DNA of 17,312 bases, from the NCBI GenBank assembly GCA_964423525.1, contig CAYRFU010000108.1, positions 1 through 17,312 on the forward strand, read 5' to 3'. Source of the stretch: an uncultured Burkholderiales bacterium (lineage in GTDB: Bacteria > Vulcanimicrobiota > Xenobia > Xenobiales > JADMJV01). Made by a program: the position numbers and the translations under genes. Shown piece by piece: positions 1 through 17,312 of this stretch. The number at the start of each line of letters is the position of its first letter. Within the stretch, counting starts at the first letter, position 1. The notes under the pieces are model-generated. The model made no database searches and was not told the origin of the DNA. It saw nothing but the letters and a program-made list of their open reading frames with translations.

Positions 1-3000
1 GGCCGTCTCGATGGTCTCTGAGATCCCCGCTAGCCGCTCTGAAAGAACGCCGAGCAACGAGGTGACTCTCATGATCGGGTCCTGGTCGTCGCCTCCCGCC
101 ATCTGGCGTCGCGAGAACCCTTTCTTAATTTCGTTCCAACGCCCTTGCTGGGTCTCAGTTAAAGTGCCCCGCAGTTCGGCCAGCTTGAGTAAGTTCTGTT
201 CGGCCCCGCTGGTCAGGGTTTGAGACTCGCTTAAATAGTGGTCTTCGATCAGACGGTCCAGCTCCTCTTCGTTCATGATCGGGACCACCTTTTCGGCCAG
301 CTTGTTCATGTTACGGTAGCTGCCTTGGAGCTTGAAAGCCGGTTGGGTGCGGTAGTTGTCGTCCATGGAGGCCGACCGGATATACTCCTGATTGACTTTA
401 AGCAGGACGTCCTGGACCACCAGCAGTTTCTTGAGAACGGAGGTGATGTCGTCGAGTTCCACGGCCGAGTAGTTGTGTTTGAGTTCCGAAGCTGGCACGG
501 GCAACCCCTGGGCTCCTTGAATGAGCTTGTAAAGGTCTTCCGGGTCGCGACCGGCCAGGGGAGCCAAGGCGGGGTTACTGGTCAGCGAATTCTCGAGGTA
601 GGAGAGTTCAAACAGATTTTGCTTGCCCGAAAGGACATCGCCCAGGTTGTAGGTGTCGGCGCGGTTGGCCAACATATCGGGGATCTGAAAACGCCCGCCT
701 GACTCCGTGTAGGGGTTGCCGGCCATCACGATGCAGAACCTTTTGCCCCTCAGGTCGTAAGTGCGGGTGCGACCCTTCCAGACGCCTTCGATCCGGCGCT
801 GACCGTCACACAAGGAGATAAACTTCTGCAGAAACTCCGGGTCGCAATGCTGAATATCGTCGAGATACAGCATCACATTGTTGGCCATCTCGAGGGCGAA
901 GTTGACTTTCTCGACTTCCTGAGCGGCGGTGGCGTTGTTGGCCTCGGCCGGGTCGAGGGAGGTCACCGAATGGCCCAGGGCGGGCCCGTTGACTTTGACG
1001 AACACCAGACCCAGGCGGTTAGCCACGTACTCCATCAAAGTGGTCTTACCGTAGCCCGGCGGAGAAATCAAAAGCAACAGACCCATCAGGTCAGTTCGTT
1101 TGCTATCGCCGACCGAGCCCATCTGCTTGGCGAGATTGTCGCCGATCAGGGGCAGATAGACTTCGTTGATCAACTTGTTGCGCACGAACGCGGTCATGAC
1201 TTTCGGAGTGTACTCTTCCAGGCGGAGACGATGTTTGTGGTGCTCGAGAACTTTGTGACGCTGGCGTTGGTAGGCTCGGTAGGCGGGTACCGTGACGGAA
1301 CGAAAAGCCTCGAGGCGAGCTAAAAACTCGTCGAGTCGTAGCTCCATGCTTCGATCGTGAAGGCGAGGGTGTTGACCCAGTAGCCCCCGCACCGTCGACT
1401 GCGTCACGGCGCTGGTGACTTCGCGTTCGAGCATCCCCTCGGTCAACAGGAGAACGGCGGCTTCCTCCTGCACGTGGCGGGCCCGCTCGTGAGCCTTCTG
1501 GTCGTCGCCCTGAAGCTTCGAAACGAAGGCCGAAATCCAGGTCTTAGCCACCTCCACCTGGCGACCTACCCGACCTTTGAGCCCCTCAAGATGAGCTTCG
1601 AAGGTCTTCAAAGTGCCGGCCTTTTCCAGATGGCGACGGAAACCATCTCGGACCTTAACGGCATCGCCGCTAGTCACAAACCGGGTGGAAGGGCTACCGA
1701 GTTCATAGAGCAGATACTTGCCGGCCTGACGCAGGAACTCCGGGGGGGCCTCCAAGCCGTGGTGCTGGCAGAAGTCGGAGACCGCTTGCTCGAGTTCGCC
1801 GGCCACCTTTTGCTCGGCTGGTGACGGGCCAAAAGTTTTTTGGAGAAGCATTAAACTGCGAGTCTGGTGGAGCCAGTCGGTGGCTGTCTCCTTGCTGGTT
1901 CCGAAAGCCCAGGTCAGAATGGCCAGAGCTCGGGCCCGGGGAGCGTAACGAAGGAGGCCGGCCGTTTGGAAAATACTCAGTAACGATTCCAGGATCAAAG
2001 TAGCGTCGACATCGTGCACCCCACGGTCGTAGCCTTCGTCGTAGCGAGTGGTGGCGTATTGGCGGACTCTCTCGAGCAGTGGTCCGTGAGCGTCCCCTTT
2101 CTTCTCCGAGTCATCGACTGTTCGGAGTAGGTCCTGGAGTAACTCCAGGGAGAGGTCAGCGGCCTCCTTCTCGGCGTCGTCGAGAAGGCAGAAGGCCAGA
2201 TACTCGGCCCGATAGACGGCTGGGGTCTCCGAGACTAACTCTTGCTGCCAAAAAGAGCGGGTCGCCTCAAAGGCTTCGTCCTGAAGTTGCTCCATGTAGT
2301 CGGTGCCGGTAATATGGAGCATCATCCTCTCTTCCCGGGGGATCATGGTCATCTCGACGGGGTCGGTATTGACGCTGAATTTGTGGCGTCCCAATTTGAC
2401 CAGGTCGGCCCCTTCGGCATAGAGCTCCTGGCGATCACGGAGCCCTCGGGTCGACTCCTGGCGGGCAGACTTCAGGCGAGAGAGGAGCTCGTCGGCTTTG
2501 ACGGGGTCGTTGAGTTCTCGCAGTCGTTCAGCCAGGTCGCGGACCTTCATTACCATCGCGTCAGAAGCGAAATAGGAGTTGAGTTTGTCGGTGTCGCTCA
2601 GAGTAGAGGCTCGGCGGATAATCCCTTCCAGAATCCGTTCCCCGGCTGAGACCAGCTGCTGAACTCGTCGTTGACGTTGGTCCACCAGCACTTGCTTCTT
2701 GGCTGAAAACGAATTGTAGACTTCCTCTCGCTTGGCCACCAGGTCGGCCACAAAGGTATCAAACTCGCCGAATTTGGCTTCCAGTTCCTCCAGCTGGAGC
2801 ATCAGAGAAGACAACGTTTCGTCGCATTTTTCGGGAGTCTCGGCCAGGTTCAAGGAGCTGGCCACATTTTGGCTGAACAGCTTGAACTGCACTCCGAACT
2901 CGGCTGTCGATTCGGTTTCGCCCAGTTTCTTGTAGCGGGCCTGAACGAGAGCTCGAGAGCGGTTGAGCTGAGCCAGAACTTCGGAAATCTGCTCGAGAAT

Positions 3001-4989
3001 CTGGGTTCTCTGGGTGGGGTCTTCCACTTTGAGTGAGCCCACCACATCGGAAAGAAGCTCAAGCCCCTGACCGATCGAGTCGAGTTCATCTCGCAGGGGG
3101 ATGACTTGGGAAGCTTTCTGGATCTCTTCGATGCCTGAGGCGGCTTGTTCGATCCGGTCGAGGTAAGGGGTGAAGGCTTTGTCGGTTAGCAAGAACTCCA
3201 CGCACCGGGCGCTGATCTCGTCGAACTTGTCGACGGCGGTCTGTTCTAGCTTTTTGAGCAGCTCTCCATCGACGTAGCGCATCTCCTGGAGGGTGATGAG
3301 GTGGCCCCTCTGGGTGCGAAGTTCATCTAAGGCTTGAACGTAGTCGTCGAGGTCGTCCCAGTCCTCAGCGTGGAGGCCCCGGATCAGGGTCTTGAGCTTG
3401 GATTGGGCTTCTTCGACGGCCTGGGTGGCTTGCTTGCGAAGAGTCTGGACTTTGTCGAACTCGGTTAGAACCAGCTCGGCCGTTTGACGAACCTCGGTCA
3501 ACAGTTCGCTGATCTGGCCAACCTCCTCGTGAGAAAGCCAGTGGTAGTTATCGATGCTCGCGTTAACCTGGTTGATCAGGTCGAGATAGGTGACCGTGGA
3601 GGGGGTCTGGTCTTGAATGCGACGACAGATGGAGTAGCAGTCAGAGATCCCTTTGACCAGTTCGGTATTGCCGATCTTCTCGAGATAGACCCCGGAGCGG
3701 GGAGCTAGTTCGTAGTTTTCCCGCGAGACGAAGGGGGTCTGCCAGATCTGCATTGGGTGAACCTTGGAGGCTTCCATGTTCGGCTCTTTGCGAAAGACCA
3801 CCATGACCCCATCGTCGAACACCGAGAAACCGTGGCAGCGCACCGGAACGGACATCTCCCGGCTGACCAGGTTATAGCTGAGCAGGACTGTCTCACCCTC
3901 TTCAGGATCACGAAAGACATAGAGCACATCCTCGCCGTTGGGGCTCTGAACGGGAGGACGCTCAAGCACAAGACTGGCGAATTCCCCCTCGAACATCCGC
4001 AGGGTTCCCTCGAGCAGGTAATATCCCCCCGGGAAAACGATGCCGTGATTGTTGGGCAGCATAATGCACGACTGACCGATAGCGTCGATGCGATGGACTG
4101 ACTGATCTCGGGTATTATAGACCAGATGGCGCCACTCGTCTTCGCGGTAGGGTAAAACACGGAGAAGCAAAAGCTCGTCGGCATCGTGATAGAGAATTTT
4201 AGCGTCGTGAAGAGCCTGCTTCTCGTGGACCACCGCCTCGCGGTAGACCCCAAGGCCATCCTCGGTGTTGTCCTCGACCTTGACGGTCAGGTCGCCGCCG
4301 ACACATTCGACGAAAGCTTTGTTGGCTACGTTGACGTGAGGGTGCACACCCTGAACGTGATCGGCGCGGGTGGTTTCCACCCATTCAAAACTGTGGCTGG
4401 AAGGGTAGGAGATGACTCCTTTGTCACCCACGAACTGAAAGTGCCCCTGGCGGTCGAGTCGCCACTCTAAACAGCGGCGGTCGCTCTGGCTTTCGCCAGT
4501 CTGAAACTGAGCGATCAGAGTGCCTTCGTAATAGCGCATCTGGCGCAGCCAGACATCTTTGTAGTAGCGGACCATGTCGTCAAAAACTTTGACGAAGTCG
4601 GGACCAGACAGGAAGTGAAAAGGGTCGCTCTGGGAAAGGGGAGGAAACTCAAAGCCGGCCTCTTCGTGCTCGACTTTGTGAAGGCAGAACACATCGGCCA
4701 CTTCGGCCGTCTTGCGACCCATATGGACGTTGTAGCCAAACAGAAGATGGTCACCAACGGCCACGATGTCACGGGGTTGGCAGGTGTTCTCGGTGCGGAT
4801 CCGCTCATTCCCTATGATACGCAACTCTTCCGACTGGAAGATCTCGGAGCGCTTCTGATTGAGCCCGTCGGTCAGTCCTTTGAGTTGACGACCCTGTTCG
4901 CCTAGTCGGGCTTTAAGGACCTCATAGGCTCCGTGCTCGATCTCTTCGCCCGAGGGGTCGGCCGTTACCACCTTCTCTTCTTCAGCCAT
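1..4989 (-). CDS. Giant multidomain AAA+ ATPase with a MoxR/AAA_5-like core. The N-terminus is present and the C-terminus runs past the window start; at least 1663 aa are visible.
   Basis: My own translation of the minus strand is open and uninterrupted from the ATG at 4989..4987 to nt 1. It is not in the supplied ORF track because no stop codon lies inside the window. Walker A is LLLISPPGYGKTTLMEYVANRLGLVFVKVNGP (plus-strand nt about 981-1080). Walker B is NVMLYLDDIQHC (nt 846-875). Sensor-1-like is CIVMAGNPYTESG. An Arg-finger-like motif is IPDMLANRADTYNLGDV. The N-terminal ~440 aa are beta-strand-rich, followed by ~850 aa of helical/coiled-coil sequence. The AAA+ core sits at about aa 1290-1470. 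The plus-strand ORFs 238..4905 in several frames are its antisense shadows. Confidence 0.8.
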   Translation of the reverse strand, partial: MAEEEKVVTADPSGEEIEHGAYEVLKARLGEQGRQLKGLTDGLNQKRSEIFQSEELRIIGNERIRTENTCQPRDIVAVGDHLLFGYNVHMGRKTAEVADVFCLHKVEHEEAGFEFPPLSQSDPFHFLSGPDFVKVFDDMVRYYKDVWLRQMRYYEGTLIAQFQTGESQSDRRCLEWRLDRQGHFQFVGDKGVISYPSSHSFEWVETTRADHVQGVHPHVNVANKAFVECVGGDLTVKVEDNTEDGLGVYREAVVHEKQALHDAKILYHDADELLLLRVLPYREDEWRHLVYNTRDQSVHRIDAIGQSCIMLPNNHGIVFPGGYYLLEGTLRMFEGEFASLVLERPPVQSPNGEDVLYVFRDPEEGETVLLSYNLVSREMSVPVRCHGFSVFDDGVMVVFRKEPNMEASKVHPMQIWQTPFVSRENYELAPRSGVYLEKIGNTELVKGISDCYSICRRIQDQTPSTVTYLDLINQVNASIDNYHWLSHEEVGQISELLTEVRQTAELVLTEFDKVQTLRKQATQAVEEAQSKLKTLIRGLHAEDWDDLDDYVQALDELRTQRGHLITLQEMRYVDGELLKKLEQTAVDKFDEISARCVEFLLTDKAFTPYLDRIEQAASGIEEIQKASQVIPLRDELDSIGQGLELLSDVVGSLKVEDPTQRTQILEQISEVLAQLNRSRALVQARYKKLGETESTAEFGVQFKLFSQNVASSLNLAETPEKCDETLSSLMLQLEELEAKFGEFDTFVADLVAKREEVYNSFSAKKQVLVDQRQRRVQQLVSAGERILEGIIRRASTLSDTDKLNSYFASDAMVMKVRDLAERLRELNDPVKADELLSRLKSARQESTRGLRDRQELYAEGADLVKLGRHKFSVNTDPVEMTMIPREERMMLHITGTDYMEQLQDEAFEATRSFWQQELVSETPAVYRAEYLAFCLLDDAEKEAADLSLELLQDLLRTVDDSEKKGDAHGPLLERVRQYATTRYDEGYDRGVHDVDATLILESLLSIFQTAGLLRYAPRARALAILTWAFGTSKETATDWLHQTRSLMLLQKTFGPSPAEQKVAGELEQAVSDFCQHHGLEAPPEFLRQAGKYLLYELGSPSTRFVTSGDAVKVRDGFRRHLEKAGTLKTFEAHLEGLKGRVGRQVEVAKTWISAFVSKLQGDDQKAHERARHVQEEAAVLLLTEGMLEREVTSAVTQSTVRGLLGQHPRLHDRSMELRLDEFLARLEAFRSVTVPAYRAYQRQRHKVLEHHKHRLRLEEYTPKVMTAFVRNKLINEVYLPLIGDNLAKQMGSVGDSKRTDLMGLLLLISPPGYGKTTLMEYVANRLGLVFVKVNGPALGHSVTSLDPAEANNATAAQEVEKVNFALEMANNVMLYLDDIQHCDPEFLQKFISLCDGQRRIEGVWKGRTRTYDLRGKRFCIVMAGNPYTESGGRFQIPDMLANRADTYNLGDVLSGKQNLFELSYLENSLTSNPALAPLAGRDPEDLYKLIQGAQGLPVPASELKHNYSAVELDDITSVLKKLLVVQDVLLKVNQEYIRSASMDDNYRTQPAFKLQGSYRNMNKLAEKVVPIMNEEELDRLIEDHYLSESQTLTSGAEQNLLKLAELRGTLTETQQGRWNEIKKGFSRRQMAGGDDQDPIMRVTSLLGVLSERLAGISETIETA

Positions 4990-4992
4990 GGT

Positions 4993-7152
4993 TTAGCTGT
5001 CGGCGAGAGTCATATCGCCAAGACCGAGGGAACCAACCGACTCGACCAGCTTCTTCAGTTTGACTTTGTCGGCCCCTTTGGCCTCGCCGGCCAGGTGGTT
5101 GAGCAGCTTGGCCAGGGTTAGGTTCTTGAGGTCGTCGCTACCGAGGGCCGGACTGGAAAGAACCTGTTTGAGATCCTGGGTGAAACTTCGCTCTCCACTG
5201 AGATAGTCGGTGGCCAGCGTACGGCCGGCCTCACCGTTCGAGACGAACGCATCTAGCGATTTGCCCAGAGCGGCGGCGTTGAAGATCTTGTCGACGAACA
5301 CTCCGTCGCCGCCGATAATGTCGATGTTGGCCTGACGGAAAGCTTCCGAGATGACCATGGCTTGAGCCTCGGCGATATCTTTGCTGATTTTGAGCTGTTC
5401 GAGGGCGATGATGCGCTGGTTTTCCAGGCGCAGGCGGAACTCTTCGTGTTCTTTGCTGGCCTCGTCGAGGGCCTTCATCGACTCCGCTTTCTTGGCGATA
5501 CCCTCGGCCTCAGCTAGCAGCTTGAGGCGCACTCCGTGGGCGTCGGTCTCGTGACGGGCTTGCTCGACCTTCACTTCGGCCAGGCCTTCTTTCTCGATGG
5601 CACTGGCGTTAGCTTCCTTGACCCGAACTTCTGCCAGACCTTCCTTCTCGCTGGCGGCCGCGTTGGCTTCTTTGACGCGGGCTTCGGCCATACCGCGAGC
5701 GGCGGTTTCGGCCTGAACTCCTTCCGCCAGTCGAATCTTGGCCGCCGCCTGTTTGTCGGCCACCTCGAGGTCGGCTTCTGCCATCGTCAGCCTTTCTTTG
5801 GCCGTATGGCGGGCCACCTGTTCGGCCGCCTCGGCTGCCTTGACGCTCTCGATCACCTTTTCCTGAGCGGCGGCTTCGGCCTGAATTACTTTGGCTTCTT
5901 TTTGGCGTCGGGCTTCTTCGACCAGGCGGAGTTCTTTGATTCTCTCTTCTTCCTCGGCTACCGTCTTCTCCACCGCCACTCGCTCTCGAATGACGTCCTG
6001 GATGAGTTTCTTCTCCTCCTCCAGGGCCCGTTCTTTCGCGATCCGCTGGAGGTCGGTTTCTCGCTCGCGAGTGATGGCTTCGAGTTGACGGTCCTTTTCG
6101 ACTTTCTCGGCCTCGATGGCGATGATACGCTCACGGTTCTTCTGAGCCACTTCGATTTCTCGCTGCTTGTTCTCGTTGTCGATGGCCAGTTTTTCGTCGG
6201 TCTTGATGCGAGCTTCTTCAGCCTTCTGTCGCTGCTCGGCTTGAGCCACCTCGATAGTGGACCGCTCGGTTGCCTGCTTGGTGGCGATCTGGCGGGCCTG
6301 TTCGGCTTCGGCGTCTTTCTCTTGCCGCTCGAGTTCAAGAATCTTTTCGCGGGCCCGAGTGTCTTGCTCCTTGATCTGCTTTTCGGCTTCCCTTTGGTGG
6401 TGGTTGGTCTGAATGTGCTGCTGAGTGGTTAGCTCGGTAATTTTGCGGATACCCTGAGCGTCGAGGATGTTGTCACGGTCGAGACTCTCGATAGGGGTTT
6501 GTTCCAGGTAGTCGATGGCAGCGTCTTCCAGGTTGTAGCCGTTGAGGTCTTCGCCGATCACCTGCATAATCATGTCCCGGAAGTTCTCGCGCTTGGTGTA
6601 AAGCTCTTCGAACTCCATCTTCTTACCGACCGTCTTGAGGGCTTCCGAGAACTTAGCCGTAAAGAGCTCATCGAGAACCTCGATGTTGGAGGCGCGAGCA
6701 CAGCCGATCAGCTGAGCGACCTGAATGACGTCGTTGACCGACTTATTGACTTTCACGTAGAAAGACACGCGAATGTCGGCCCGAATGTTATCTTTACAGA
6801 TCAATCCTTCGTGGCCCTGGCGGTCGATCTCGATGGTTTTGACCGAGATGTCCATCAGCTCCGCTTTGTGGATGACTGGGTAGACCAGTCCACCGGTGAA
6901 GCTGACTTCGGGCGTCTCGCCCATCTTGTTGATGATCAAAGCCGTTCCCTGATCGACTTTAATGTAGAATCGTTTGAAAACGATGATGGTCACCAGGGCC
7001 ATGAAGGCCAGGACCGCCATCACGATGGGACCATAAATTATGATTCCCGGCACCTCAAGGCCGAGAATGTTCACCCCGAGCAAAGTCAAAAACCGTTCCT
7101 CCACACTTGGCCCTTTCGGTTGAGAGCCACCTTTGGTGTAGCGTTCCCGCAT
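4993..7152 (-). CDS. Flotillin-family SPFH/band-7 membrane protein, long form. It has an N-terminal TM helix, an SPFH domain, a long Glu/Ala/Lys/Arg-rich coiled coil, and a flotillin C-terminal region.
   Basis: The ORF track gives 4993..7167 (724 aa). The TM helix is GIIIYGPIVMAVLAFMALVTIIVF. The SPFH-like core is ALIINKMGETPEVSFTGGLVYPVIHKAELMDISVKTIEIDRQ. There are ~300 aa of EA-repeat coiled coil (for example EAEKQIKEQDTRAREKILELERQEKDAEAEQARQ). The TAA stop at 4995..4993 lies 3 nt before the ATG of the downstream giant ATPase. The codon at 7167 is TTG; the first ATG is at 7152..7150 (MRERYTKGG...), which I use as the start. TTG at 7167 would instead overlap the NfeD stop by 4 nt. Confidence 0.85.
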   Translation of the reverse strand: MRERYTKGGSQPKGPSVEERFLTLLGVNILGLEVPGIIIYGPIVMAVLAFMALVTIIVFKRFYIKVDQGTALIINKMGETPEVSFTGGLVYPVIHKAELMDISVKTIEIDRQGHEGLICKDNIRADIRVSFYVKVNKSVNDVIQVAQLIGCARASNIEVLDELFTAKFSEALKTVGKKMEFEELYTKRENFRDMIMQVIGEDLNGYNLEDAAIDYLEQTPIESLDRDNILDAQGIRKITELTTQQHIQTNHHQREAEKQIKEQDTRAREKILELERQEKDAEAEQARQIATKQATERSTIEVAQAEQRQKAEEARIKTDEKLAIDNENKQREIEVAQKNRERIIAIEAEKVEKDRQLEAITRERETDLQRIAKERALEEEKKLIQDVIRERVAVEKTVAEEEERIKELRLVEEARRQKEAKVIQAEAAAQEKVIESVKAAEAAEQVARHTAKERLTMAEADLEVADKQAAAKIRLAEGVQAETAARGMAEARVKEANAAASEKEGLAEVRVKEANASAIEKEGLAEVKVEQARHETDAHGVRLKLLAEAEGIAKKAESMKALDEASKEHEEFRLRLENQRIIALEQLKISKDIAEAQAMVISEAFRQANIDIIGGDGVFVDKIFNAAALGKSLDAFVSNGEAGRTLATDYLSGERSFTQDLKQVLSSPALGSDDLKNLTLAKLLNHLAGEAKGADKVKLKKLVESVGSLGLGDMTLADS
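5573..5680. repeat. 54-bp imperfect tandem direct repeat (2 copies, 5573..5626 and 5627..5680) inside the flotillin coiled-coil coding region.
   Basis: Copy 1 is acttcggccaggccttctttctcgatggcactggcgttagcttccttgacccga. Copy 2 is acttctgccagaccttccttctcgctggcggccgcgttggcttctttgacgcgg. They are about 75% identical and in phase. They encode the 18-aa protein repeat VKEANA-A-EKEGLAEV-V twice. Confidence 0.7.
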
Positions 7153-7163
7153 CGAGTGGGGGC

Positions 7164-7811
7164 TCAAACTTGAACGAAGTAAAAGTTCCCCTCGGCTTGA
7201 TAGCTCAGCAGTTTGACCAGGTCGTGACGCTTGAGAGCGTTCTCTTTCTTGGCCCGAATTTCGAATTCATAGTCGAGGCCCTCGTGTCGTATGTAACCCT
7301 TGCCAAAAGAGTCTGTGACTCTACCAGTGACCACCTTACATTCCATTCCCACCAGCACCTCCGGTTCTACCGACTGGGCGCTGCGGAAAAGGGGGGCCAG
7401 GGGGCGGACGGCCACCACGGTGGCCAAGATTCCCGCCGCTAGCGAGAGAGCCCCCACCAGAAGCTTGTGGACCCAGGTGACCTGAACCAGAACGGTAGCG
7501 GTCCGTTCCATGGCAAATAGGGAAAGGAGAAAGCCAAAAGCTAGAGTCAGGGTCACTAAAAAGATGGGAGGAACCCCAGACAGGCCCACTTTCCATTGGC
7601 TCCGATGACCTCGGAAAGCTCCCCCAGCCCCGCCATATCCAATGTCGACAGCGTCGGGCGCCAGGTCCACCACGGTAGAGTCGATGCCGATGTCGGGGTC
7701 GATCAATCCCACCATCATCAGGGTCCAGAAGAGGGCGCACAGCCCCAACCCCACCGCGAAGGCCGCGGTGGGGAAGGAGAACAGGATATAGACCAGATCG
7801 TTTTGGGCCAT
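7164..7811 (-). CDS. NfeD/YqiJ-like membrane protein with an OB-fold C-terminal domain. This is the usual operon partner of SPFH proteins.
   Basis: The ORF track gives 7164..7865 (233 aa). I place the start at the ATG at 7811..7809 (MAQNDLVYILF...), which shares one nucleotide with the TGA stop of the upstream channel gene (TGATG). There are two or three hydrophobic helices (FSFPTAAFAVGLGLCALFWTLMMVGLI, VPPIFLVTLTLAFGFLLSLF, LLVGALSLAAGILATVVAV). The beta-rich C-terminus is ECKVVTGRVTDSFGKGYIRHEGLDYEFEIRAKKENALKRHDLVKLL, about 215 aa as in E. coli YqiJ. The position immediately upstream of a flotillin gene matches the conserved NfeD-SPFH pairing. Confidence 0.65.
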   Translation of the reverse strand: MAQNDLVYILFSFPTAAFAVGLGLCALFWTLMMVGLIDPDIGIDSTVVDLAPDAVDIGYGGAGGAFRGHRSQWKVGLSGVPPIFLVTLTLAFGFLLSLFAMERTATVLVQVTWVHKLLVGALSLAAGILATVVAVRPLAPLFRSAQSVEPEVLVGMECKVVTGRVTDSFGKGYIRHEGLDYEFEIRAKKENALKRHDLVKLLSYQAEGNFYFVQV

Positions 7812-8824
7812 CAGGCCGCTGGTTGGTTCATCTCCTGAATTCGCTCCAACACGGGGAGTTCGCAAACCACCGTAAAGCTGTCCCCGGCGCTAAAATTCGA
7901 GAGGCCGGTGGGATGGAGCCGGGGCTCGCGACCTTTTTGGCTGTAGCGAATCACGGTGAAGTCCAGATCCTTCCTGAGCTTGGTGAAGTTGCTCTTGGCC
8001 AGGGGCGTTTTGGGCAACACCTCGATATTCGCCGTTAACAGCAAACCATCTTCCAGATGAAGCGAATCGATCACGCTATCGCAGTGAGAGGCGGCCGCGA
8101 AGGCCGGTGCGGCCAGAGCGGTGGCCGAGAAGGCGGCTCGAATTCCGAAGGCTTCCTGCAGCTTGCGAGCCATTCTCTGATCGAACATCTTGAGAACGAT
8201 GTTGATGTCGGGTCGTAGCTCTTTAGCGTTCAAGGCGAGTTCGACGTTGAGCAGGTCATCGTCGGTGGCTACGATCACAGATTTCGCCTCTTGGATGTTG
8301 GCCTTTTCCAGAATGTCGTGGGAGTGGAGGTCCCCGACGAGCACCGCTATCGAGTCGTTACGAAGTTTGGTCACAAACTCGTTTTCCCTATCGGAAATGA
8401 CGGTCACGTCATCCCCGAAATGGGTCAGTTCTTCACAGATGCGGAATCCGACCTGGCCGGTTCCGCAGACAATCACATGGTTGTTCATCTGTTCGGGTTT
8501 CCTTCCTAAGAGTTGATCGATTCGGGTCGACAGTAAGAAGTCAGCTACGAATCCGAAGATGCTGGCCAGAGCCACCGCTCCGGTTGTCATCAAGAGGGAC
8601 GCGTAGACTTTGGTGAAAGGCGAGATATGGTCGAAACGAAGACTACCGGGGTCGCCGGTGACAAAGATCGTAAAAGCCGAGAAAAGGGCGTCGACGAAGG
8701 GGATACTCTCGACCCACATCATTTCCAGGACGGCCCCCAGGAAGATGATGGCGACACCTAACAGAACACGATGCCCAAACTTTCTCAAGACAGCCTCCTC
8801 TCCCGGAGCCCATCTTATCACCAA
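7811..8824 (-). CDS. Two-TM pore-loop cation channel with a cytoplasmic RCK/TrkA-N (NAD-binding fold) domain plus a TrkA-C-like tail. It is MthK-like with a non-canonical selectivity filter.
   Basis: TM1 is VLLGVAIIFLGAVLEMMWV. The pore helix and filter are SIPFVDALFSAFTIFVTGDPGS. TM2 is VYASLLMTTGAVALASIFGFVADFLL. The Rossmann motif is HVIVCGTGQVGFRICEEL (GxGxxG), followed by ...VTVISDRENEF... The first in-frame start is TTG at 8824 (GTG at 8821 is an alternative), 18 nt downstream of the MMPL stop. The TGA stop overlaps the NfeD ATG. Confidence 0.75.
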   Translation of the reverse strand: MVIRWAPGEEAVLRKFGHRVLLGVAIIFLGAVLEMMWVESIPFVDALFSAFTIFVTGDPGSLRFDHISPFTKVYASLLMTTGAVALASIFGFVADFLLSTRIDQLLGRKPEQMNNHVIVCGTGQVGFRICEELTHFGDDVTVISDRENEFVTKLRNDSIAVLVGDLHSHDILEKANIQEAKSVIVATDDDLLNVELALNAKELRPDINIVLKMFDQRMARKLQEAFGIRAAFSATALAAPAFAAASHCDSVIDSLHLEDGLLLTANIEVLPKTPLAKSNFTKLRKDLDFTVIRYSQKGREPRLHPTGLSNFSAGDSFTVVCELPVLERIQEMNQPAA

Positions 8825-8842
8825 ATTGTATTTTAGGAAAAT

Positions 8843-11503
8843 TTACCCCAGTTCCTTTTTCTTCGAGAGAAAAATCTGGGTTAAGCAGGGTAATAGGAAC
8901 AGCGCCGTGAGAAGGTTGGCGCCCATACCGGTGGCGATGACGAAGCCCAGGCTGTTGATGCCCTGGTGACTGGCTGACAACAGGCTTCCAAAGCCGGCCA
9001 TGGTGGTGAGAGCTGAGAGGGTCACAGCGGGACCGGTGGAGCTAGTGAGAATTCTGGGACTCCCCAGTTCTCGCATACGGTGAGTGACGTGAATGCCAAA
9101 GACGGACCCCACTCCTACTAGCATCGGCAAGGCCACAAAGTTGGCCGGATTGAAATCGATCCGGGTCCAACCCATAAAACCGACCATCCAAAGGACGCCG
9201 AGAGCCGTGGGTAGGAAGGTGATGACCACTTGAGCCGGACTGCGGAGATACAGAGCTGTCACTAGAAGCACCACCGCCAAAGTTACCCAGACTGTGATGG
9301 CGTGAGTCCGACCGATGACATCTTCAAAGTGCTTCATCAAAATCGGGTCGCCCCGGATCTCGGGGTCGAGGGAGGCCAGGTCTCCCACAAACTGCACCAA
9401 AGGTCCCCGATTCCAAACGTTACCCGACGGGCGGATCAACAGAGCCAGGATGGAGTCTTTTCCTACCAACCGGACCTTGAGCGGGGTGGGAATGTCGTCC
9501 AAAGTGGGAGCAGTAGGTTCCTGCTCTTCTAGAAACCCCAGAATCAGAGCCAGGTCCTGATGGAGGGCCAGTTGGGTTTGGTCGATGGCGTCGAAGATCG
9601 GCCCGGGACCGCGCTCCTCAAGAGCGCGGCGAAGTTCGGTGAGTCGCTCCTGGAAGGCCCCCGCCGGCTCTCGGAACTGCTCCTGGGTCCGCAAAAGAGG
9701 GTAGCGCTCGGCGTAGACTGTCTCGAGCGTTTCAAGCGCTCTGGCCAGGGGCCGCACGGGGGTCGGCATGGGAGCTTTTTGAGACGGCTTGAGTCCTTCC
9801 GCCAGGGTCAAGATTTCGGCGATCAGGTCATCTTTTTCTGGATCTTTGACCGGAACGAGATCGGTCGGGGTGGTGACGGCGTGAACCGTCTCAAGACTCC
9901 GAAACTGCTCGGCTCGTTGGCGGGCCTGCTCCAATCCGTCGACCAGAGAGATAGCCGAGAGAACAGTCGTCTGGCCTTCGCGGGTTAATTGGAGTTCGGT
10001 CTTGATCGACTCCAAGTCAGGCGCTTGAATGTTGAGCAGGTTATAGTCGAAGGTGACTTTCCAGGCCTGAGGCAGTGCCAATACCGAGATCACCACGGCC
10101 GCTAGGGCTACCAGTCGAGAGTTTTTGAGCAGCGCCGATTCCATGGTCTGGAGTGGGGCCTGTTCATAGACCTCGGCCACGGGCAGGCCGGCTCGCTCGT
10201 AGAGGGCGAAAAAGGCTGGCAAGACCACGATGGTGGCCAGATAGCAAAGCAAGACTCCCCCACCCGCGATGATGCCTAACTCAGCGATTCCCTTGAAGCC
10301 CGTTACCACCATCACCAGCAAAGCCAGGGCAGTGCTCACGGCTCCCACGAAGGTGTCGAGACCCGTCCCCCGGATGGTAAAGGTGAGAGCGTCATCAGCC
10401 GTTTTGCCGCTGGCTCTCTCTTCGAAATAGCGGAAGGTGAGGTGGATTCCGAAGTCGATTCCCAACCCGCATAGTATCGAGATGTAGGTGACGGTGATGA
10501 AATTGAGATGACCCACCGCCAGGGTGGTGAACCCGAGGGTCCAGGTCAGGCCGATCACGAGGGTCGTCAAGGCCATGGCTGGTCGACGCACCTCTCCAAA
10601 GCCGAGGGTGAACAGAATCGAGATCAGTGTCAGGGTGATGGCCGAGCTTTTGAGAGAGTCCAATCCGCAGGTCCGCCTTTCATCGGTAAGCAGCACAGGC
10701 TCCCCGGTAACCCGGATACGAAGGCCAGGAAAGCGAGGTTCTAACTCCTCAATGATGACCCGGATTCGGTCCACTGAAGGACCAGTTGGCGAGATGCGAT
10801 CGTCTGAAATGGTCGGCTTGACCAGGAGGAGAAACGTCTCCTCGTCTTCCAGCGTCGTATAGAAAGTGGTTTCTCCGAGAAAAAGCTTCTGTTGACGAGG
10901 ATCGTCGCTAGAGAACTTCTCCACCAGAAAGGGGGGAGGGCGACCTGACTCTAAGCGGCCCAAAATTTGTCCCAGCAACCGATTCCCCAGGTCGAGTCCG
11001 GCCGCGATTCGGGAGGGCTCGAGCGAAACCACATCTGAGCGGAACTGGGCCAGCAGGGTAGGGAGGTCCGGCTGGTCGGTAAATCCTCGAAGATAGGGTC
11101 TCGCCAACCGTAGCTCGTCGCGGATCTCTTCTAGAGCTTGATTTGCCAGGAAGAAAAGCCCTCGAGCCCTCAAGTAAGAAAGGTCGAGACGATGCAGGGT
11201 ATGCTGGAAAAACTCCGGTTCTTGCTCCAGTCTCTCGGCCAAGACATCGAGAAAATGAGTCCGACTGGCTCGCGGGCCGTCATCGACGAGAACGGCTATG
11301 TCGTGGGGAAGCGGGAACTTTTCCCGGTAGTCCCGGATCTGGACGATGTAGGGGTCATCCTCCCGAAAAAGGTAGGACCAGTCTGTCTGAAGGTCGAGCT
11401 TGGCAGCCGTGAGAGCAAGACAAATCAAGCCGACCAGGGTCGAAAGAATCAGGGTCGGGGTCGGGTTCTCGAAAGAAGTTCTTGCGATCTTGACGTGGGG
11501 CAA
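8843..11503 (-). CDS. MMPL/RND-superfamily inner-membrane transporter of the HpnN-like lipid exporter type, 886 aa.
   Basis: It is 886 aa with a 1+5 / 1+5 TM arrangement and two large extracytoplasmic loops. TM1 is LILSTLVGLICLALTAAKL followed by a ~230-aa loop. A TM cluster contains GLGIDFGIHLTFRYFEE (the RND TM4 GxxxD-type motif). The second half repeats the pattern (LVALAAVVISVLALPQAW, loop, AITVWVTLAVVLLVTALY ... MLVGVGSVFGIHVTHRMREL). The first in-frame start is TTG at 11503..11501. Confidence 0.8.
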   Translation of the reverse strand: MPHVKIARTSFENPTPTLILSTLVGLICLALTAAKLDLQTDWSYLFREDDPYIVQIRDYREKFPLPHDIAVLVDDGPRASRTHFLDVLAERLEQEPEFFQHTLHRLDLSYLRARGLFFLANQALEEIRDELRLARPYLRGFTDQPDLPTLLAQFRSDVVSLEPSRIAAGLDLGNRLLGQILGRLESGRPPPFLVEKFSSDDPRQQKLFLGETTFYTTLEDEETFLLLVKPTISDDRISPTGPSVDRIRVIIEELEPRFPGLRIRVTGEPVLLTDERRTCGLDSLKSSAITLTLISILFTLGFGEVRRPAMALTTLVIGLTWTLGFTTLAVGHLNFITVTYISILCGLGIDFGIHLTFRYFEERASGKTADDALTFTIRGTGLDTFVGAVSTALALLVMVVTGFKGIAELGIIAGGGVLLCYLATIVVLPAFFALYERAGLPVAEVYEQAPLQTMESALLKNSRLVALAAVVISVLALPQAWKVTFDYNLLNIQAPDLESIKTELQLTREGQTTVLSAISLVDGLEQARQRAEQFRSLETVHAVTTPTDLVPVKDPEKDDLIAEILTLAEGLKPSQKAPMPTPVRPLARALETLETVYAERYPLLRTQEQFREPAGAFQERLTELRRALEERGPGPIFDAIDQTQLALHQDLALILGFLEEQEPTAPTLDDIPTPLKVRLVGKDSILALLIRPSGNVWNRGPLVQFVGDLASLDPEIRGDPILMKHFEDVIGRTHAITVWVTLAVVLLVTALYLRSPAQVVITFLPTALGVLWMVGFMGWTRIDFNPANFVALPMLVGVGSVFGIHVTHRMRELGSPRILTSSTGPAVTLSALTTMAGFGSLLSASHQGINSLGFVIATGMGANLLTALFLLPCLTQIFLSKKKELG

Positions 11504-11566
11504 TGAGGCAGGGCGTTCTTCTCTTAGGTGAAGGCCCCTTCTCTCCGGCGGAAGCGAACGCCTGTT

Positions 11567-12751
11567 CTAGTAAAGAGAAGGCTCGGTTACGGGGAGTCTG
11601 ACGGGCAGAGAAATGAGCCTCCGGAGGACGTGATTCTTGACCCGATCGGGCTGGGCCTCGAGGAGGACCATTTCGGGGAAGCGCTCCAGCAAGCTGGTGA
11701 CGGCCGTCTGGCCGGTCAGCTTAGCCAGCATCGCGCCTACACAAAAATGCTTTCCTCTTCCGAAGGCGACGTGGCGGTAGGCTGGTCTCTCGAAGTTGAG
11801 ATGGTCTGGCTCGGGAAATTGGGCCGGATCCCGGTTCGCCGCGCCGATGTAGAGACAAACCATATGGTTCGGCTCAATGATGGAAGGCCCAACCTCGATT
11901 CGCTTGAGAGCCACCCGAGTGGCGACCTGGGAAGGGCTGTCGATGCGAAGGAACTCCTCGATGGCGTTGGGGACAAGTTCCGGCCGAGCCAAGAGCTTTT
12001 GGTGGGCCGTCGGGTCTCGAAGTAAGGCTAGCATACCGTTGCAGATCAAATTGGCGGTTGTATCGTGTCCGGCCAGCAAGAGTAGAGCGCAAAGGGAGAT
12101 CACTTCGTCACGGGTCAGCTCGGTAGCCGCCAAGGAGGCCATCAGGTTGGGCTCTGGTCGTTGTCGATAGCGGTCGTAGAGTTGTCCGAAGATCTCGACC
12201 ATTTCGACCAGGGCCTCTTCTGAGCGGGCCGCGCTATCGGGCGGTCGGATGGGAGCGCCGATGAAGGTGGCCAGGGTTTCGCCCCAGTGATAGAATCGCT
12301 CAATGTCGACCGAATTGGCCCCTAACACCTCGGCGATCACCAAAGCCGGTAAAGGCATGCCTAGATGGGCGACCAGGTCGACCTCACCCTGAAGATCGTC
12401 GAGCAGCCGGTCGACTTTGGCTTGGACTATTTCTCGGTAGCCTTCCACGAACTTGGGAGTGAACACGGTCGCCAGTCGCTGACGCAGATAAGTGTGATGG
12501 GGAGGGTCGATGTAGAGAATCCAGTGGTGAGCCACCCTCTCGAGGGTCGGAGGCGCTTCTCTCCCGGCCATAAAAAGAGGCAGCATGAAGTTGGAAAGAT
12601 GGTCGTGTTTAAGCAGGGCGGCTACCTCGGAATAGCCCGTCACGATCCACCCCAGTTGGGGGTCCCACTGAATAGGAGCGGTCTCCCGCAAACGATGATA
12701 GGTGGGGTAGGGATCGAGAAAAAAGGAGTTTTCCAGGCTCCAATGCACCAT
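11567..12751 (-). CDS. Cytochrome P450 monooxygenase.
   Basis: The heme-binding loop is FGRGKHFCVGAMLA (FxxGxxxCxG). The I-helix is LLLAGHDTTANL (A/G-G-x-D/E-T-T). The ExxR motif is EEFLRIDSP, and a PERF-like motif is FERPAYRHVAFG. The ORF track extends to a GTG at 12841 (424 aa), but that would overlap the divergent methyltransferase start by 11 nt. The ATG at 12751..12749 (MVHWSLENSFFLDPYP...) gives a typical bacterial CYP N-terminus and about 394 aa, so I use it. Confidence 0.88.
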   Translation of the reverse strand: MVHWSLENSFFLDPYPTYHRLRETAPIQWDPQLGWIVTGYSEVAALLKHDHLSNFMLPLFMAGREAPPTLERVAHHWILYIDPPHHTYLRQRLATVFTPKFVEGYREIVQAKVDRLLDDLQGEVDLVAHLGMPLPALVIAEVLGANSVDIERFYHWGETLATFIGAPIRPPDSAARSEEALVEMVEIFGQLYDRYRQRPEPNLMASLAATELTRDEVISLCALLLLAGHDTTANLICNGMLALLRDPTAHQKLLARPELVPNAIEEFLRIDSPSQVATRVALKRIEVGPSIIEPNHMVCLYIGAANRDPAQFPEPDHLNFERPAYRHVAFGRGKHFCVGAMLAKLTGQTAVTSLLERFPEMVLLEAQPDRVKNHVLRRLISLPVRLPVTEPSLY

Positions 12752-12830
12752 TTTGCTGGCTTCGCTTCCCTGGGAAACACTCCCCCCAGGTTCGTAGGAA
12801 GGCTTCTGGCCTGTTACGAACCGGCTCCTC
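12752..12830. promoter_or_regulatory. Divergent intergenic region between the P450 (-) and the methyltransferase (+). It presumably carries both promoters.
   Basis: This is the only non-coding stretch between the two divergently oriented genes, provided the P450 starts at ATG 12751. I could not identify convincing -35/-10 or SD elements by eye. Confidence 0.3.
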
Positions 12831-13670
12831 ATGGAGCCCACCGACCGCCTTCCCTATTTCGATATTATTCTCGAACAGATCGCCTGCGGCAACGATGAAA
12901 TGACCCAGGCCTTCGGCAATCATGTGCACTGGGGATATTGGGAAGATCCTTCCGAGGCCGATGGCACGGTGGCCGATTTCGTGGCAGCCTCGGAGCGGAT
13001 GTGTCGTCTTGTCTGCGATCAGGCCGAGCCCGACCAGGGGCCTGAGATTCTCGACGCAGGCTGTGGCTTCGGAGGCACGGTTTTTAGCCTCCATCAACGG
13101 TTTCCGGAGCTTCGTTTGACGGGTCTGAATATCGATGAGCGTCAACTGAAGCGAGCCAACAGCCGAATCCCTGCCGGCGCTCCCATCCAGTTCGTCCACG
13201 GCGACGCCTGCGCCATGCCACTCGAGGATCAGTCCTTCCAGGCCGTCTTAGCGGTTGAGTGCGTCTTCCACTTTCCCAGCCGCCTGAACTTCGTCAGGGA
13301 AGCGGCTCGAGTTTTGAAGCCAGGTGGTCTCTTGGTGATCTCGGACTACGTCGCCGGCGTTAGTGAGATGCCTAATCTTGACCCGGAGGTGATCGAGAAG
13401 ACTGCCAGGGTGTTTGCCGAGTTTTATGGCCCGGGGTGTGTGGCCAGGGCCGGTGATTACGAGGCCCTGGCTGAACATTGCGGGCTCGAGATCACTCAGG
13501 CTCGGGATATCACCGCCAATACCATTCCCGGCTATCAGGTCGGGCGCAAGCTGCTGGCCGGGCTTTCCCAGGCTGGTATCGAGGCCACCCACTGGATGGA
13601 GAAAGAAGCCCGAGAAGGCGTGGCTAGGTATATGATCTACACCTTCCGCAAGCCCACTACTTCACGCTAG
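12831..13670 (+). CDS. Class I SAM-dependent methyltransferase (Methyltransf_11/EryG-RebM-like fold), 279 aa.
   Basis: Motif I is EILDAGCGFGGTVFSL. An acidic motif follow-on is TGLNIDERQ. Motif II/III region is IQFVHGDACAMPLEDQSFQAVLAVECVFHF ... LKPGGLLVISDY. The N-terminal HWGYWEDP is reminiscent of small-molecule O-/C-methyltransferases. It is transcribed divergently from the P450. Its TAG stop at 13668..13670 overlaps the convergent unknown gene by 14 nt. Confidence 0.85.
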   Translation: MEPTDRLPYFDIILEQIACGNDEMTQAFGNHVHWGYWEDPSEADGTVADFVAASERMCRLVCDQAEPDQGPEILDAGCGFGGTVFSLHQRFPELRLTGLNIDERQLKRANSRIPAGAPIQFVHGDACAMPLEDQSFQAVLAVECVFHFPSRLNFVREAARVLKPGGLLVISDYVAGVSEMPNLDPEVIEKTARVFAEFYGPGCVARAGDYEALAEHCGLEITQARDITANTIPGYQVGRKLLAGLSQAGIEATHWMEKEAREGVARYMIYTFRKPTTSR

Positions 13671-14631
13671 CCAGGGTTTGCTCCACCAGTTGAACGGTTC
13701 TCGCTCTGTTAGGTCGGGGAACCACGGCCACTACCTCCAGGGTTTCTCCACCCCAAGGGCGTTGGCCACTGACCCCCACCCATTCACTCTGCTCGGCCAG
13801 GAGTTCAGCCATTTGAAGTCCTCCGGGTCCGGTGTGGGGGCCATAAGTGACCTTTCCGAGGGTCTTGAGCCGGCGGCCGGGATGGTCAGTGAGATAGGCC
13901 GCCAGGAAATGCCTCTGCTGTTCAAACGATTGGCGAAGAAAACATGGTTTGAGGTCGAAGGGCGAGGTTTTTGTGGTGGAAAATCCTATCGGGATCCACA
14001 TCATGAAGGCCCCGGAATACCAACCCCCAGTGGTGGTGGGCTTCAGGGAGAGGGCCGGTTGGAACTGCCTCAAGGTTTGTCGCGCTCGGCTCAGAGGGTG
14101 AGTAGGGCACTGTTCATCGTAGTCGGCGCTGTCGGCGGGCAAAGCAAGGAGAAGGTCTTTGGGAAAGGTCCACCATTTCTTGAAGCGCTCGAAGAAACTC
14201 GGTCGAGGATAAACGAATCCATAAGGATCAGCTGGCTTGCCGGCTGGAACCTGACCGGCTAAGAGCTCGGCACGGGTTGAGGAGGTGAAGGCCTCCAGGG
14301 TAGTGACTAGAACCTCTACGTGGCCGCCGGCTACCGGGCACAAAGCCAGAGCCTGGTAAACCATCGAGCCGGAGGGGCCGGGGTATTTAATGACGCCGGT
14401 CACCCCCAGGCGGCTGTCCATTTCGCACTCAATCAAACCACCGCCCCGGGTGGCCGCCACAAGACGAAGGTCGTGACGATAGGTCTCCAGGGCTTCTGGT
14501 TCAGCCGAAACCGGATAGGGGTGGAATTCCAGTCGAACCCTGTCGTTTTGTCGGCTGCTCCAGGCCTTCACAGTGGCCGTTTGCTCGGCCGGCCACCAAC
14601 CGGGTGGGGGAGTGAAATCGAGTTCTAGCAA
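13657..14631 (-). CDS. Hypothetical protein of 324 aa with no recognisable motifs. It is translationally coupled to the upstream Clp-like ATPase.
   Basis: The complete ORF is in the track. The first start is TTG at 14631..14629, overlapping the TAG stop (14627..14625) of the Clp-like gene by 7 nt. Composition is protein-like (Pro/Gly/Trp-containing, for example GWYSGAFMMWIPIGFSTTKTSPFDLKP). I recognised no Walker motif, TM helix or signal peptide. Confidence 0.5.
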   Translation of the reverse strand: MLELDFTPPPGWWPAEQTATVKAWSSRQNDRVRLEFHPYPVSAEPEALETYRHDLRLVAATRGGGLIECEMDSRLGVTGVIKYPGPSGSMVYQALALCPVAGGHVEVLVTTLEAFTSSTRAELLAGQVPAGKPADPYGFVYPRPSFFERFKKWWTFPKDLLLALPADSADYDEQCPTHPLSRARQTLRQFQPALSLKPTTTGGWYSGAFMMWIPIGFSTTKTSPFDLKPCFLRQSFEQQRHFLAAYLTDHPGRRLKTLGKVTYGPHTGPGGLQMAELLAEQSEWVGVSGQRPWGGETLEVVAVVPRPNRARTVQLVEQTLASVK

Positions 14632-16817: not shown

Positions 16818-16927
16818 GAGACTTTCGTTCGATTTCGATGGCGCGTTCCATTTCCCTCACTGGGGCGGATAGGGAATTTTGAGATGGGCCTGAGAGAGGA
16901 CTGACTCCGCTCCATCTCGGATGGTAG
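16818..16927. promoter_or_regulatory. Divergent intergenic region between the Clp-like ATPase (-) and the CaCA exchanger (+).
   Basis: This ~110-bp non-coding gap is flanked by divergent starts (GTG 16817 on minus, GTG 16928 on plus). There is a weak SD-like ggatggtagg upstream of the exchanger start. No promoter hexamers are confidently assignable. Confidence 0.3.
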
Positions 16928-17312
16928 GTGGTGACTACCGTTCTGTTCTATACCCTGGTTGCTCTGCTTTCGACCGGCATTGTCTGGAAAGGAAGCGAGC
17001 TGCTGGAATCGTCCAGCGAGAAACTGTCGGCCTACTACGAGTTGCCGCCTATCGTCCAAGGGGCGGTTGTGGTGGCTGTGGGGTCGAGCTTTCCAGAGCT
17101 CTCGACTACAGTTCTCTCCACTGTGATTCACGGGAAATTCGAACTAGGGGTGGCAGCCATCGTTGGCTCGGCCATCTTCAACATTCTCGTGATACCAGCC
17201 TTGGCTGGAATCTATGGAGGTCGCCAGCTGGAGTCCAACCGGGATTTGGTCTACAAAGAGGCCCAGTTTTATATGATCGCCGTCTCCGTTCTGCTGCTGA
17301 CCTTCTCCTTCG
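16928..17312 (+). CDS. CaCA-family Na+/Ca2+ (cation/Ca2+) exchanger, YrbG-like. Only the N-terminal 128 aa are in the window; it is 3' partial.
   Basis: My translation from the GTG at 16928, immediately after an in-frame TAG at 16925-16927, reads VVTTVLFYTLVALLSTGIVWKGSELLESSSEKLSAYYELPPIVQGAVVVAVGSSFPELSTTVLSTVIHGKFELGVAAIVGSAIFNILVIPALAGIYGG... It contains the alpha-1 repeat signature G-S-S-F-P-E-L and the typical TM1 ... SSEKL/ELP start of YrbG-like exchangers. It is not in the ORF track because it runs off the window end. Confidence 0.8.
   Translation, partial: MVTTVLFYTLVALLSTGIVWKGSELLESSSEKLSAYYELPPIVQGAVVVAVGSSFPELSTTVLSTVIHGKFELGVAAIVGSAIFNILVIPALAGIYGGRQLESNRDLVYKEAQFYMIAVSVLLLTFSF

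Follow-up and report, generated by a model that had tools for sequence, protein, structure and literature searches.

The 17,312-nucleotide stretch of DNA analysed here (contig CAYRFU010000108.1 of assembly GCA_964423525.1, positions 1 to 17,312; hereafter the window) carries on its minus strand, within bases 1-8824, four consecutive open reading frames (ORFs) that encode, in order of transcription, a channel-like protein with an RCK domain, a small YqiJ/NfeD2-like membrane protein, a flotillin and a giant AAA+ ATPase. The main result of our comparative analysis is that the last three of these genes make up a real three-gene operon that is kept in many phyla, and that the channel-like gene is a lineage-specific accessory which does not belong to this conserved core. 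The module is known from comparative genomics, and the window provides a further member of it, in its abbreviated form.

The evidence for the three-gene operon comes from a neighbourhood survey in which the window proteins were compared with the six-frame ORFs of the best 80 genome loci, out of at least 571 species genomes in which the ATPase family is present. These loci span the Myxococcota, Actinomycetota, Gammaproteobacteria, Planctomycetota, Acidobacteriota and other groups. Seventy-three of them had at least 2.6 kb of upstream DNA and were scored for flotillin, and in all 73 a flotillin gene is found upstream of the ATPase gene on the same strand, in 67 cases within 400 nt. A YqiJ-like gene adjoins the flotillin gene in 66 of 71 loci, and the 3-nt gap that separates the flotillin and ATPase genes of the window often recurs among its close metagenomic relatives. 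The linkage of the three core genes is far above chance, and a fortuitous adjacency of ATPase and flotillin genes is effectively refuted. An earlier note on this DNA had proposed to ask whether homologues of the ATPase recur next to SPFH and NfeD genes, and the answer from this survey is clearly affirmative for both partners.

Some variation was seen upstream of the flotillin gene. The six metagenomic relatives nearest to the ATPase (L001, L085, L101, L102, L103 and L104) present a divergent ABC-F ATPase gene at this position and no recognisable YqiJ-like gene, with small ORFs of 93-140 amino acids (aa) there in some of them. The 760-aa proteins encoded upstream in L003 and L087 were considered as a fourth component of the module and rejected, as they are unrelated to each other.

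The three core genes and their products

The earlier note had described four minus-strand genes with almost no intergenic DNA; the ORFs and their tight packing stand, but two of the starts were probably placed too far 5'. As longest ORFs, the RCK gene occupies 7811..8824, the YqiJ-like gene 7164..7811, the flotillin gene 4993..7167 and the ATPase gene 1..4989. The stop codon of the RCK gene (TGA, 7813..7811) has A7811 in common with the ATG of the YqiJ-like gene (7811..7809), and the flotillin TAA (4995..4993) is followed after 3 nt (ACC) by the ATPase ATG (4989..4987), both junctions being just as had been claimed. The claimed 4-nt overlap between the YqiJ-like and flotillin genes, on the other hand, is probably an artefact of the choice of the longest ORF. 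The YqiJ-like stop (TGA, 7166..7164) does overlap a TTG at 7167..7165, with the first in-frame flotillin ATG (7152..7150) lying 11 nt past the stop, but the N-termini of flotillin homologues correspond to residues 24-27 or so of the longest ORF, and a Shine-Dalgarno motif, GGAGGA (7102..7097), is located 8 nt ahead of TTG 7089. Hence, TTG 7089 is probably the true flotillin start, which would leave a spacer of about 74 nt after the YqiJ-like gene. In a similar vein, the RCK orthologue of L086, a metagenome-assembled genome of the Armatimonadota, begins at residue 13 of the window RCK protein, and GGAGG (8798..8794) precedes TTG 8788, from which the RCK gene probably starts (7811..8788).

The co-directional, closely spaced run of genes goes on past 8824 with genes for an HpnN-like RND transporter (8843..11503) and a cytochrome P450 (11567..12841). 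A promoter scan of the minus strand from 4700 to 13000 gave a single promoter-like match, ahead of the P450 gene (12892..12864). The boundary at 8824 is therefore arbitrary. Inside the cluster, the scan detected no terminator or promoter signal exceeding background, a result that is uninformative beyond that.

The predicted architecture of the window flotillin comprises an N-terminal membrane segment (hydrophobic at residues 34-71), a Band_7 domain, a long coiled coil rich in E, A and K residues and a C-terminal extension. The Band_7 domain is recognised in residues 1-276 (E 1.1e-11; 45.6 bits against a cut-off of 23.6), and the full-length protein gives no Pfam match, a failure that is probably due to coiled-coil bias; full-length searches of PDB sequences yielded no match either. 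The protein aligns with Escherichia coli YqiK, with 29% identity over 469 aa (BLAST, E 6e-40) that take in both SPFH domain and coiled coil; the SPFH part alone matches QmcA, weakly (E 0.006). The window protein is longer than YqiK (553 aa), at 724 aa if the longest ORF is taken and about 698 aa if translation begins at the probable start; the YqiK alignment stops at residue 501 of the window protein, and the remaining C-terminal part has no YqiK match. Given that no 'Flot' domain (PF15975) was found in the protein and that it scores 16.8 bits against the NCBIfam FloT model, for which the cut-off is 700, it is best classified by these profiles as a flotillin-family relative (SPFH2, YqiK type) and not as a FloT equivalog. 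In some loci (L003:7301-7813, L058:7078-7713, L020:7088-7543 and L103:2785-3342), an extra short SPFH/Band_7 protein of 150-210 aa is encoded after the YqiJ-like gene and before the long flotillin gene.

The product of the gene preceding the flotillin has three hydrophobic segments and, at the C-terminus, a domain of some 70 aa that seems beta-rich judging by its sequence. On its own, the window protein matches no Pfam family, NfeD included. A profile built from 30 members of its family nonetheless matches E. coli YqiJ over the whole architecture (30 bits, hmmsearch); four of the 30 members match Pfam YqiJ_N (best 8e-5) and one matches NfeD (PF01957) at 0.02. The family profile produced only spurious transmembrane matches against the PDB, and it features a conserved motif, G..C.V.T.RV...FGQA...DGGAGL...VR. 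The NfeD identity proposed earlier fits the location of the gene, which directly precedes an SPFH2 gene on the same strand; in sequence, the family profile points to YqiJ, and the window protein itself lacks an NfeD match. YqiJ and YuaF have been classed as NfeD2 proteins, partners of SPFH2 flotillins (Hinderhofer et al. 2009, PMC2636767), and the YqiJ-like protein and YqiK-type flotillin of the window appear to be an ordinary SPFH2-NfeD2 pair. The order of the two genes, with the small membrane protein first and the flotillin second, is shared with E. coli YqiJ-YqiK and Bacillus subtilis YuaF-FloT (PMC2636767), but the E. coli pair has no ATPase gene downstream.

The third core gene encodes a protein of considerable size. 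Its frame is open to base 1 of the window, giving 1663 aa, and homologues reach 1750-2000 aa, which places the C-terminus outside the window. The family comprises at least 4828 sequence clusters, and homologues from different phyla are 53-63% identical to the window protein over 99-100% of the query. An N-terminal helix is followed by a beta-rich domain (about 57-417), a helical region that includes DUF7902 (about 423-1290) and an AAA+ module (about 1296-1560). Pfam recognises DUF3686 (PF12458) at residues 36-483 with full profile coverage (E 3.7e-164), DUF7902 at 604-687 and AAA/AAA_5 at 1305-1428. Searches against PDB sequences returned nothing beyond Walker A-level similarity to Cdc48/p97. 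The Walker A motif (GYGKTT), the Asp-Asp pair D1377-D1378, sensor 1 (N1425) and the arginine finger (R1443) show no variation across the 75 ATPase sequences compared. The ATPase site is intact, though atypical in its Walker B motif, which holds the Asp-Asp pair and reads L-D-D-I-Q-H (window about 856-861). Asp-Glu is the usual pair here in AAA+ proteins, and Asp-Asp is also found in STAND NTPases; its invariance in this family may point to slow or switch-like hydrolysis.

The earlier note had given the AAA+ core as MoxR/AAA_5-like. With a model of the AAA module (predicted local distance difference test, pLDDT, 73), the top structural matches were NorQ (E 2e-7; template modelling score, TM-score, 0.55-0.60 per target) and CbbQ, both of the MoxR class, which come first in E-value as well as in TM-score per target (0.52-0.60). 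The module also displays an 'AGNP...P..L.NR' sensor-1/arginine-finger pattern that we take to be typical of the MoxR class. However, RuvB and MCM yield similar E-values, and Pfam AAA (E 9e-9) outscores AAA_5 (E 1e-6). The modelled core thus appears to be nearest to the MoxR-class proteins NorQ and CbbQ, but with RuvB and MCM trailing only slightly the clade assignment is not firm. Compared to members of that class (NorQ, CbbQ, RavA), the window ATPase is about six times larger, has Asp-Asp rather than Asp-Glu in Walker B, and shows no VWA partner among the neighbours scanned.

Motif, hydrophobicity and Pfam scans of the ATPase revealed no HExxH motif, no hydrophobic or transmembrane segment and no match to a peptidase family. 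The protein is accordingly predicted to be soluble, and the earlier statement that it is not FtsH-like is sustained by the lack of both HExxH and a transmembrane segment. The DUF3686 family goes by the name of 'DNA repair ATPase' at NCBI and is labelled 'ATPase involved in DNA repair' in Pfam. Were the label correct, the ATPase would be a DNA repair enzyme and its adjacency to flotillin functionally meaningless, which we judge extremely improbable: the label is the one point in its favour, domain scans of the ATPase detected no DNA-binding, nuclease or helicase domain, and in all 73 loci scored it is accompanied by genes for membrane proteins. The name is unsupported, and it probably arose because the coiled coil resembles proteins annotated as SbcC- or RecN-type.

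The described operon and its extended forms

The earlier note had presented the cluster as a new kind of flotillin-associated ATPase system, a claim to novelty that cannot be maintained. The module was described computationally by Ravi et al. (mSystems 2024, PMC11237479; preprint 2020), who report it as a PspA-associated or stand-alone operon, read it in terms of membrane dynamics, note that abbreviated, PspA-less operons are the more widely distributed, and list the same gene string in a supplementary table. The window agrees with the order given there, in which YqiJ/YuaF-like, Band-7-coiled-coil-flotillin and beta-propeller-coiled-coil-AAA+ proteins are encoded in one operon. The window is thus the abbreviated form of the operon in PMC11237479 plus an RCK channel-like gene, joined to it by the ATGA overlap; the sections and supplement of the article that were consulted make no mention of such a gene.

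The extended forms were recovered by clustering neighbouring ORFs across the genome loci and scanning the clusters against Pfam. In 13-15 gammaproteobacterial loci, genes for a DUF2170 (YjfI-like) protein and PspA precede the module, and downstream additions consist of a phospholipase D (PLD) gene in eight loci and a rhomboid gene in seven. The fullest gammaproteobacterial order runs from the YjfI-like and PspA genes through the three core genes to either phospholipase D or rhomboid. The full form outlined in PMC11237479 (CesT-like DUF2170, PspA, PLD) is hence also present in gammaproteobacterial relatives of the window ATPase. PspA is missing from most loci, and the 17-kb window contains neither a CesT-like/DUF2170 gene nor a PspA gene. 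A few genes downstream of the ATPase in L104 (12851-13759), a protein with a TPM_phosphatase domain was observed, a domain listed as PspA-associated in PMC11237479.

The module is also carried by plasmids, in 13 of 72,556 plasmid records, among which are the Pseudomonas fluorescens SBW25 plasmid pQBR103 (L099) and plasmids of Deinococcus and Streptomyces. In pQBR103 (87-98 kb), the module directly follows a yjfK/L/M/C-like polyamine cluster with DUF2491, DUF350, DUF1190 and glutathionylspermidine synthase-like genes, and an MvaT/MvaU gene comes after it. This plasmid constitutes a genetically tractable instance of the module.

A patchy distribution across phyla, the presence on some megaplasmids such as these, and the PLD/HKD genes found downstream in eight loci could all be taken to suggest an anti-phage or abortive-infection system, in which the ATPase would sense infection and the membrane components or PLD would act as effectors; from general knowledge, a giant ATPase with a beta-rich N-domain also resembles some conflict-system ATPases. 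We regard this as quite improbable. The four proteins have no PADLOC match except for a Walker A-only match of the ATPase to IetA (E 2e-4), the plasmid records that bear the module are very few, and the genes that recur around it encode PspA, YjfI-like, rhomboid and housekeeping proteins rather than defence functions. The core is, moreover, strongly conserved, at the identity levels across phyla given above, and no diversification of the kind expected of sensors was seen in it.

The RCK channel-like gene

The protein encoded at the 5' end of the cluster (7811..8824, likely start TTG 8788) matches TrkA_N (E 4e-25) after two hydrophobic segments flanking a pore-loop-like stretch; it has a Kch-like NCBIfam match at residues 82-223 and no Pfam Ion_trans_2 match. 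Its filter is non-canonical, reading FTIFVTGDPG (FVTGDPG, not TVGYGD), and the L086 orthologue (L086:3991-4983) has FTMFLTGEPG in its place. The degenerate filter FT(I/M)F(V/L)TG(D/E)PG common to both orthologues suggests that the protein is probably not K+-selective.

The earlier note had made the channel a component of the module, and the possibility that channel, NfeD, flotillin and ATPase constitute an obligate four-part machine, with an SPFH scaffold coupling an ion channel to an AAA+ motor, deserves consideration in view of the ATGA overlap of the RCK and NfeD-like genes. L086 keeps the four-gene order, with an RCK orthologue that is 55% identical, has the same odd filter and occupies an identical position. 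In six loci of the Polyangia/Kofleriaceae (L016, L017, L037, L040, L054 and L071), a gene for an Ion_trans_2 protein of about 160 aa lies directly upstream of the YqiJ-like gene, in co-directional orientation in L017 and divergent in the other five, and the protein contains a filter-like stretch, SVGYDN. That SPFH-related proteins such as stomatin and MEC-2 regulate channels is established knowledge. Nevertheless, about 70 of the 80 genome loci have no RCK or channel gene, and the one RCK relative found among them is convergent and downstream. Among the nine close metagenomic relatives the orthologue is in place in L086 only, with seven of the eight others lacking it. In L088, which holds the nearest metagenomic RCK relative found (59% identity), no module lies within 6 kb of that gene. 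The small myxobacterial Ion_trans_2 protein shows no detectable relationship to the window RCK protein. An obligate four-part machine thus seems improbable, and the RCK gene is a lineage-specific accessory rather than part of the conserved core.

It is likewise doubtful, if conceivable, that the two unrelated, filter-degenerate pore proteins recruited independently 5' of the module (2TM-RCK in the lineage of the window, Ion_trans_2 in the Polyangia and Kofleriaceae) are genuine clients or sensors of the flotillin-AAA+ machine. If this recruitment were functional, the system would link ion leak or membrane-potential sensing to the remodelling of a flotillin scaffold with ATP; it would amount to a bacterial equivalent of stomatin-regulated channels, with an added motor.

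Proposed function and wider neighbourhood

We propose, with moderate confidence and by analogy with known SPFH systems, that the three-gene module uses ATP to remodel flotillin or PspA assemblies on the membrane when the envelope is under stress, with the channel as an accessory. On the cytoplasmic side of the inner membrane, the flotillin and the YqiJ-like protein would probably come together as a cage or scaffold, as suggested by HflK/C, QmcA-YbbJ and flotillin cages. The ATPase would dock on this scaffold by way of its N-domain or coiled coil and, where the envelope is damaged, spend ATP on the assembly, remodelling or disassembly of protein polymers or clients bound to the membrane. Its substrates may be the flotillin lattice and, in genomes that encode it alongside, PspA/ESCRT-III, on which the ATPase would play a Vps4-like role. 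In the lineage of the window, the RCK channel-like protein would be a co-expressed accessory client or sensor, standing outside the conserved machine.

Two kinds of known system invite comparison. HflK/HflC-FtsH and prohibitin-m-AAA likewise pair an SPFH scaffold with an AAA+ enzyme at the membrane, but the window ATPase differs from FtsH in having no protease domain, HExxH motif or transmembrane anchor, in its MoxR-like AAA+ module and in its N-terminal beta-rich and helical domains of about 1290 aa. The gammaproteobacterial versions, in turn, join genes for PspA, a member of the ESCRT-III superfamily, and an AAA+ ATPase in one operon, in a manner reminiscent of ESCRT-III/Vps4 and PspA/Vipp1. 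Here the architecture of the ATPase is unrelated to that of Vps4, and PspA is absent from most loci.

The first of these analogies would also accommodate a protease-free form of membrane-protein quality control, in which the flotillin cage corrals membrane proteins that are damaged or unassembled, the ATPase unfolds or extracts them and proteolysis is left to separately encoded enzymes, such as rhomboid. The rhomboid genes downstream of the module are in keeping with it, and the FloA-NfeD system of Staphylococcus aureus has been reported to stabilise unfolded proteins (cited in PMC13086221). Yet MoxR-like AAA+ proteins are usually remodellers and not threading unfoldases, the ATPase has neither a membrane anchor nor a protease domain, and rhomboid is found in a minority of loci only, all of which make this mode of action possible and, in our estimate, unlikely.

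Several considerations weigh against ATP-driven remodelling as well. The 80 loci surveyed are those closest to the query, and more distant members of the family fall outside the sample. The contact between ATPase and flotillin is deduced from synteny alone; the mirror-tree correlation between the two proteins (r = 0.94, Mantel 0 of 999) was not used as evidence of co-evolution, since shared genome phylogeny explains it. PspA is absent from most loci, including the window, which limits any Vps4-like role on PspA to a part of the family. MoxR-class ATPases usually work with a VWA partner, and no VWA family turned up in the Pfam annotation of genes around the nine metagenomic loci or in the nine recurrent neighbour clusters scanned in the genome loci. 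Searches of open-access literature returned no experimental study of the module and, at full-text level, no paper on DUF3686, PF12458 or flotillin together with a DNA repair ATPase; neither a study of SPFH proteins in P. aeruginosa (PMC13086221) nor Hinderhofer et al. (2009, PMC2636767) mentions the ATPase.

The wider neighbourhood of the cluster provides some further observations. The HpnN/BstA-like RND lipid transporter and cytochrome P450 genes that lie upstream in co-directional orientation (8843-13670, with an adjoining divergent S-adenosylmethionine-dependent methyltransferase gene) bring potential hopanoid or sterol transport next to a flotillin, and the transporter matches TIGR03480 (E 2e-145), below the curated cut-off. 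Polyisoprenoid lipids have been linked to flotillin microdomains, and this proximity is hence suggestive; the RND/P450 arrangement is not kept in L086. Further upstream, on the minus strand (13657-17131), a ClpB/ClpA-like protein of 730 aa with two AAA domains and a PADLOC DolB match (E 2e-23) is encoded by a gene that overlaps by a few bases those for proteins of 324 and 105 aa, neither with a family match. These genes may form a separate small operon, the partners of which do not match Dodola.

The value of the window in itself is modest, as it adds another instance of a computationally described module, together with a lineage-specific channel-like add-on. More generally, the near-obligate linkage of a giant ATPase to flotillin provides a concrete handle on the long-standing question of the function and partners of bacterial flotillins, and it puts forward the notion that flotillin- or PspA-based membrane repair may involve an ATP-driven step.

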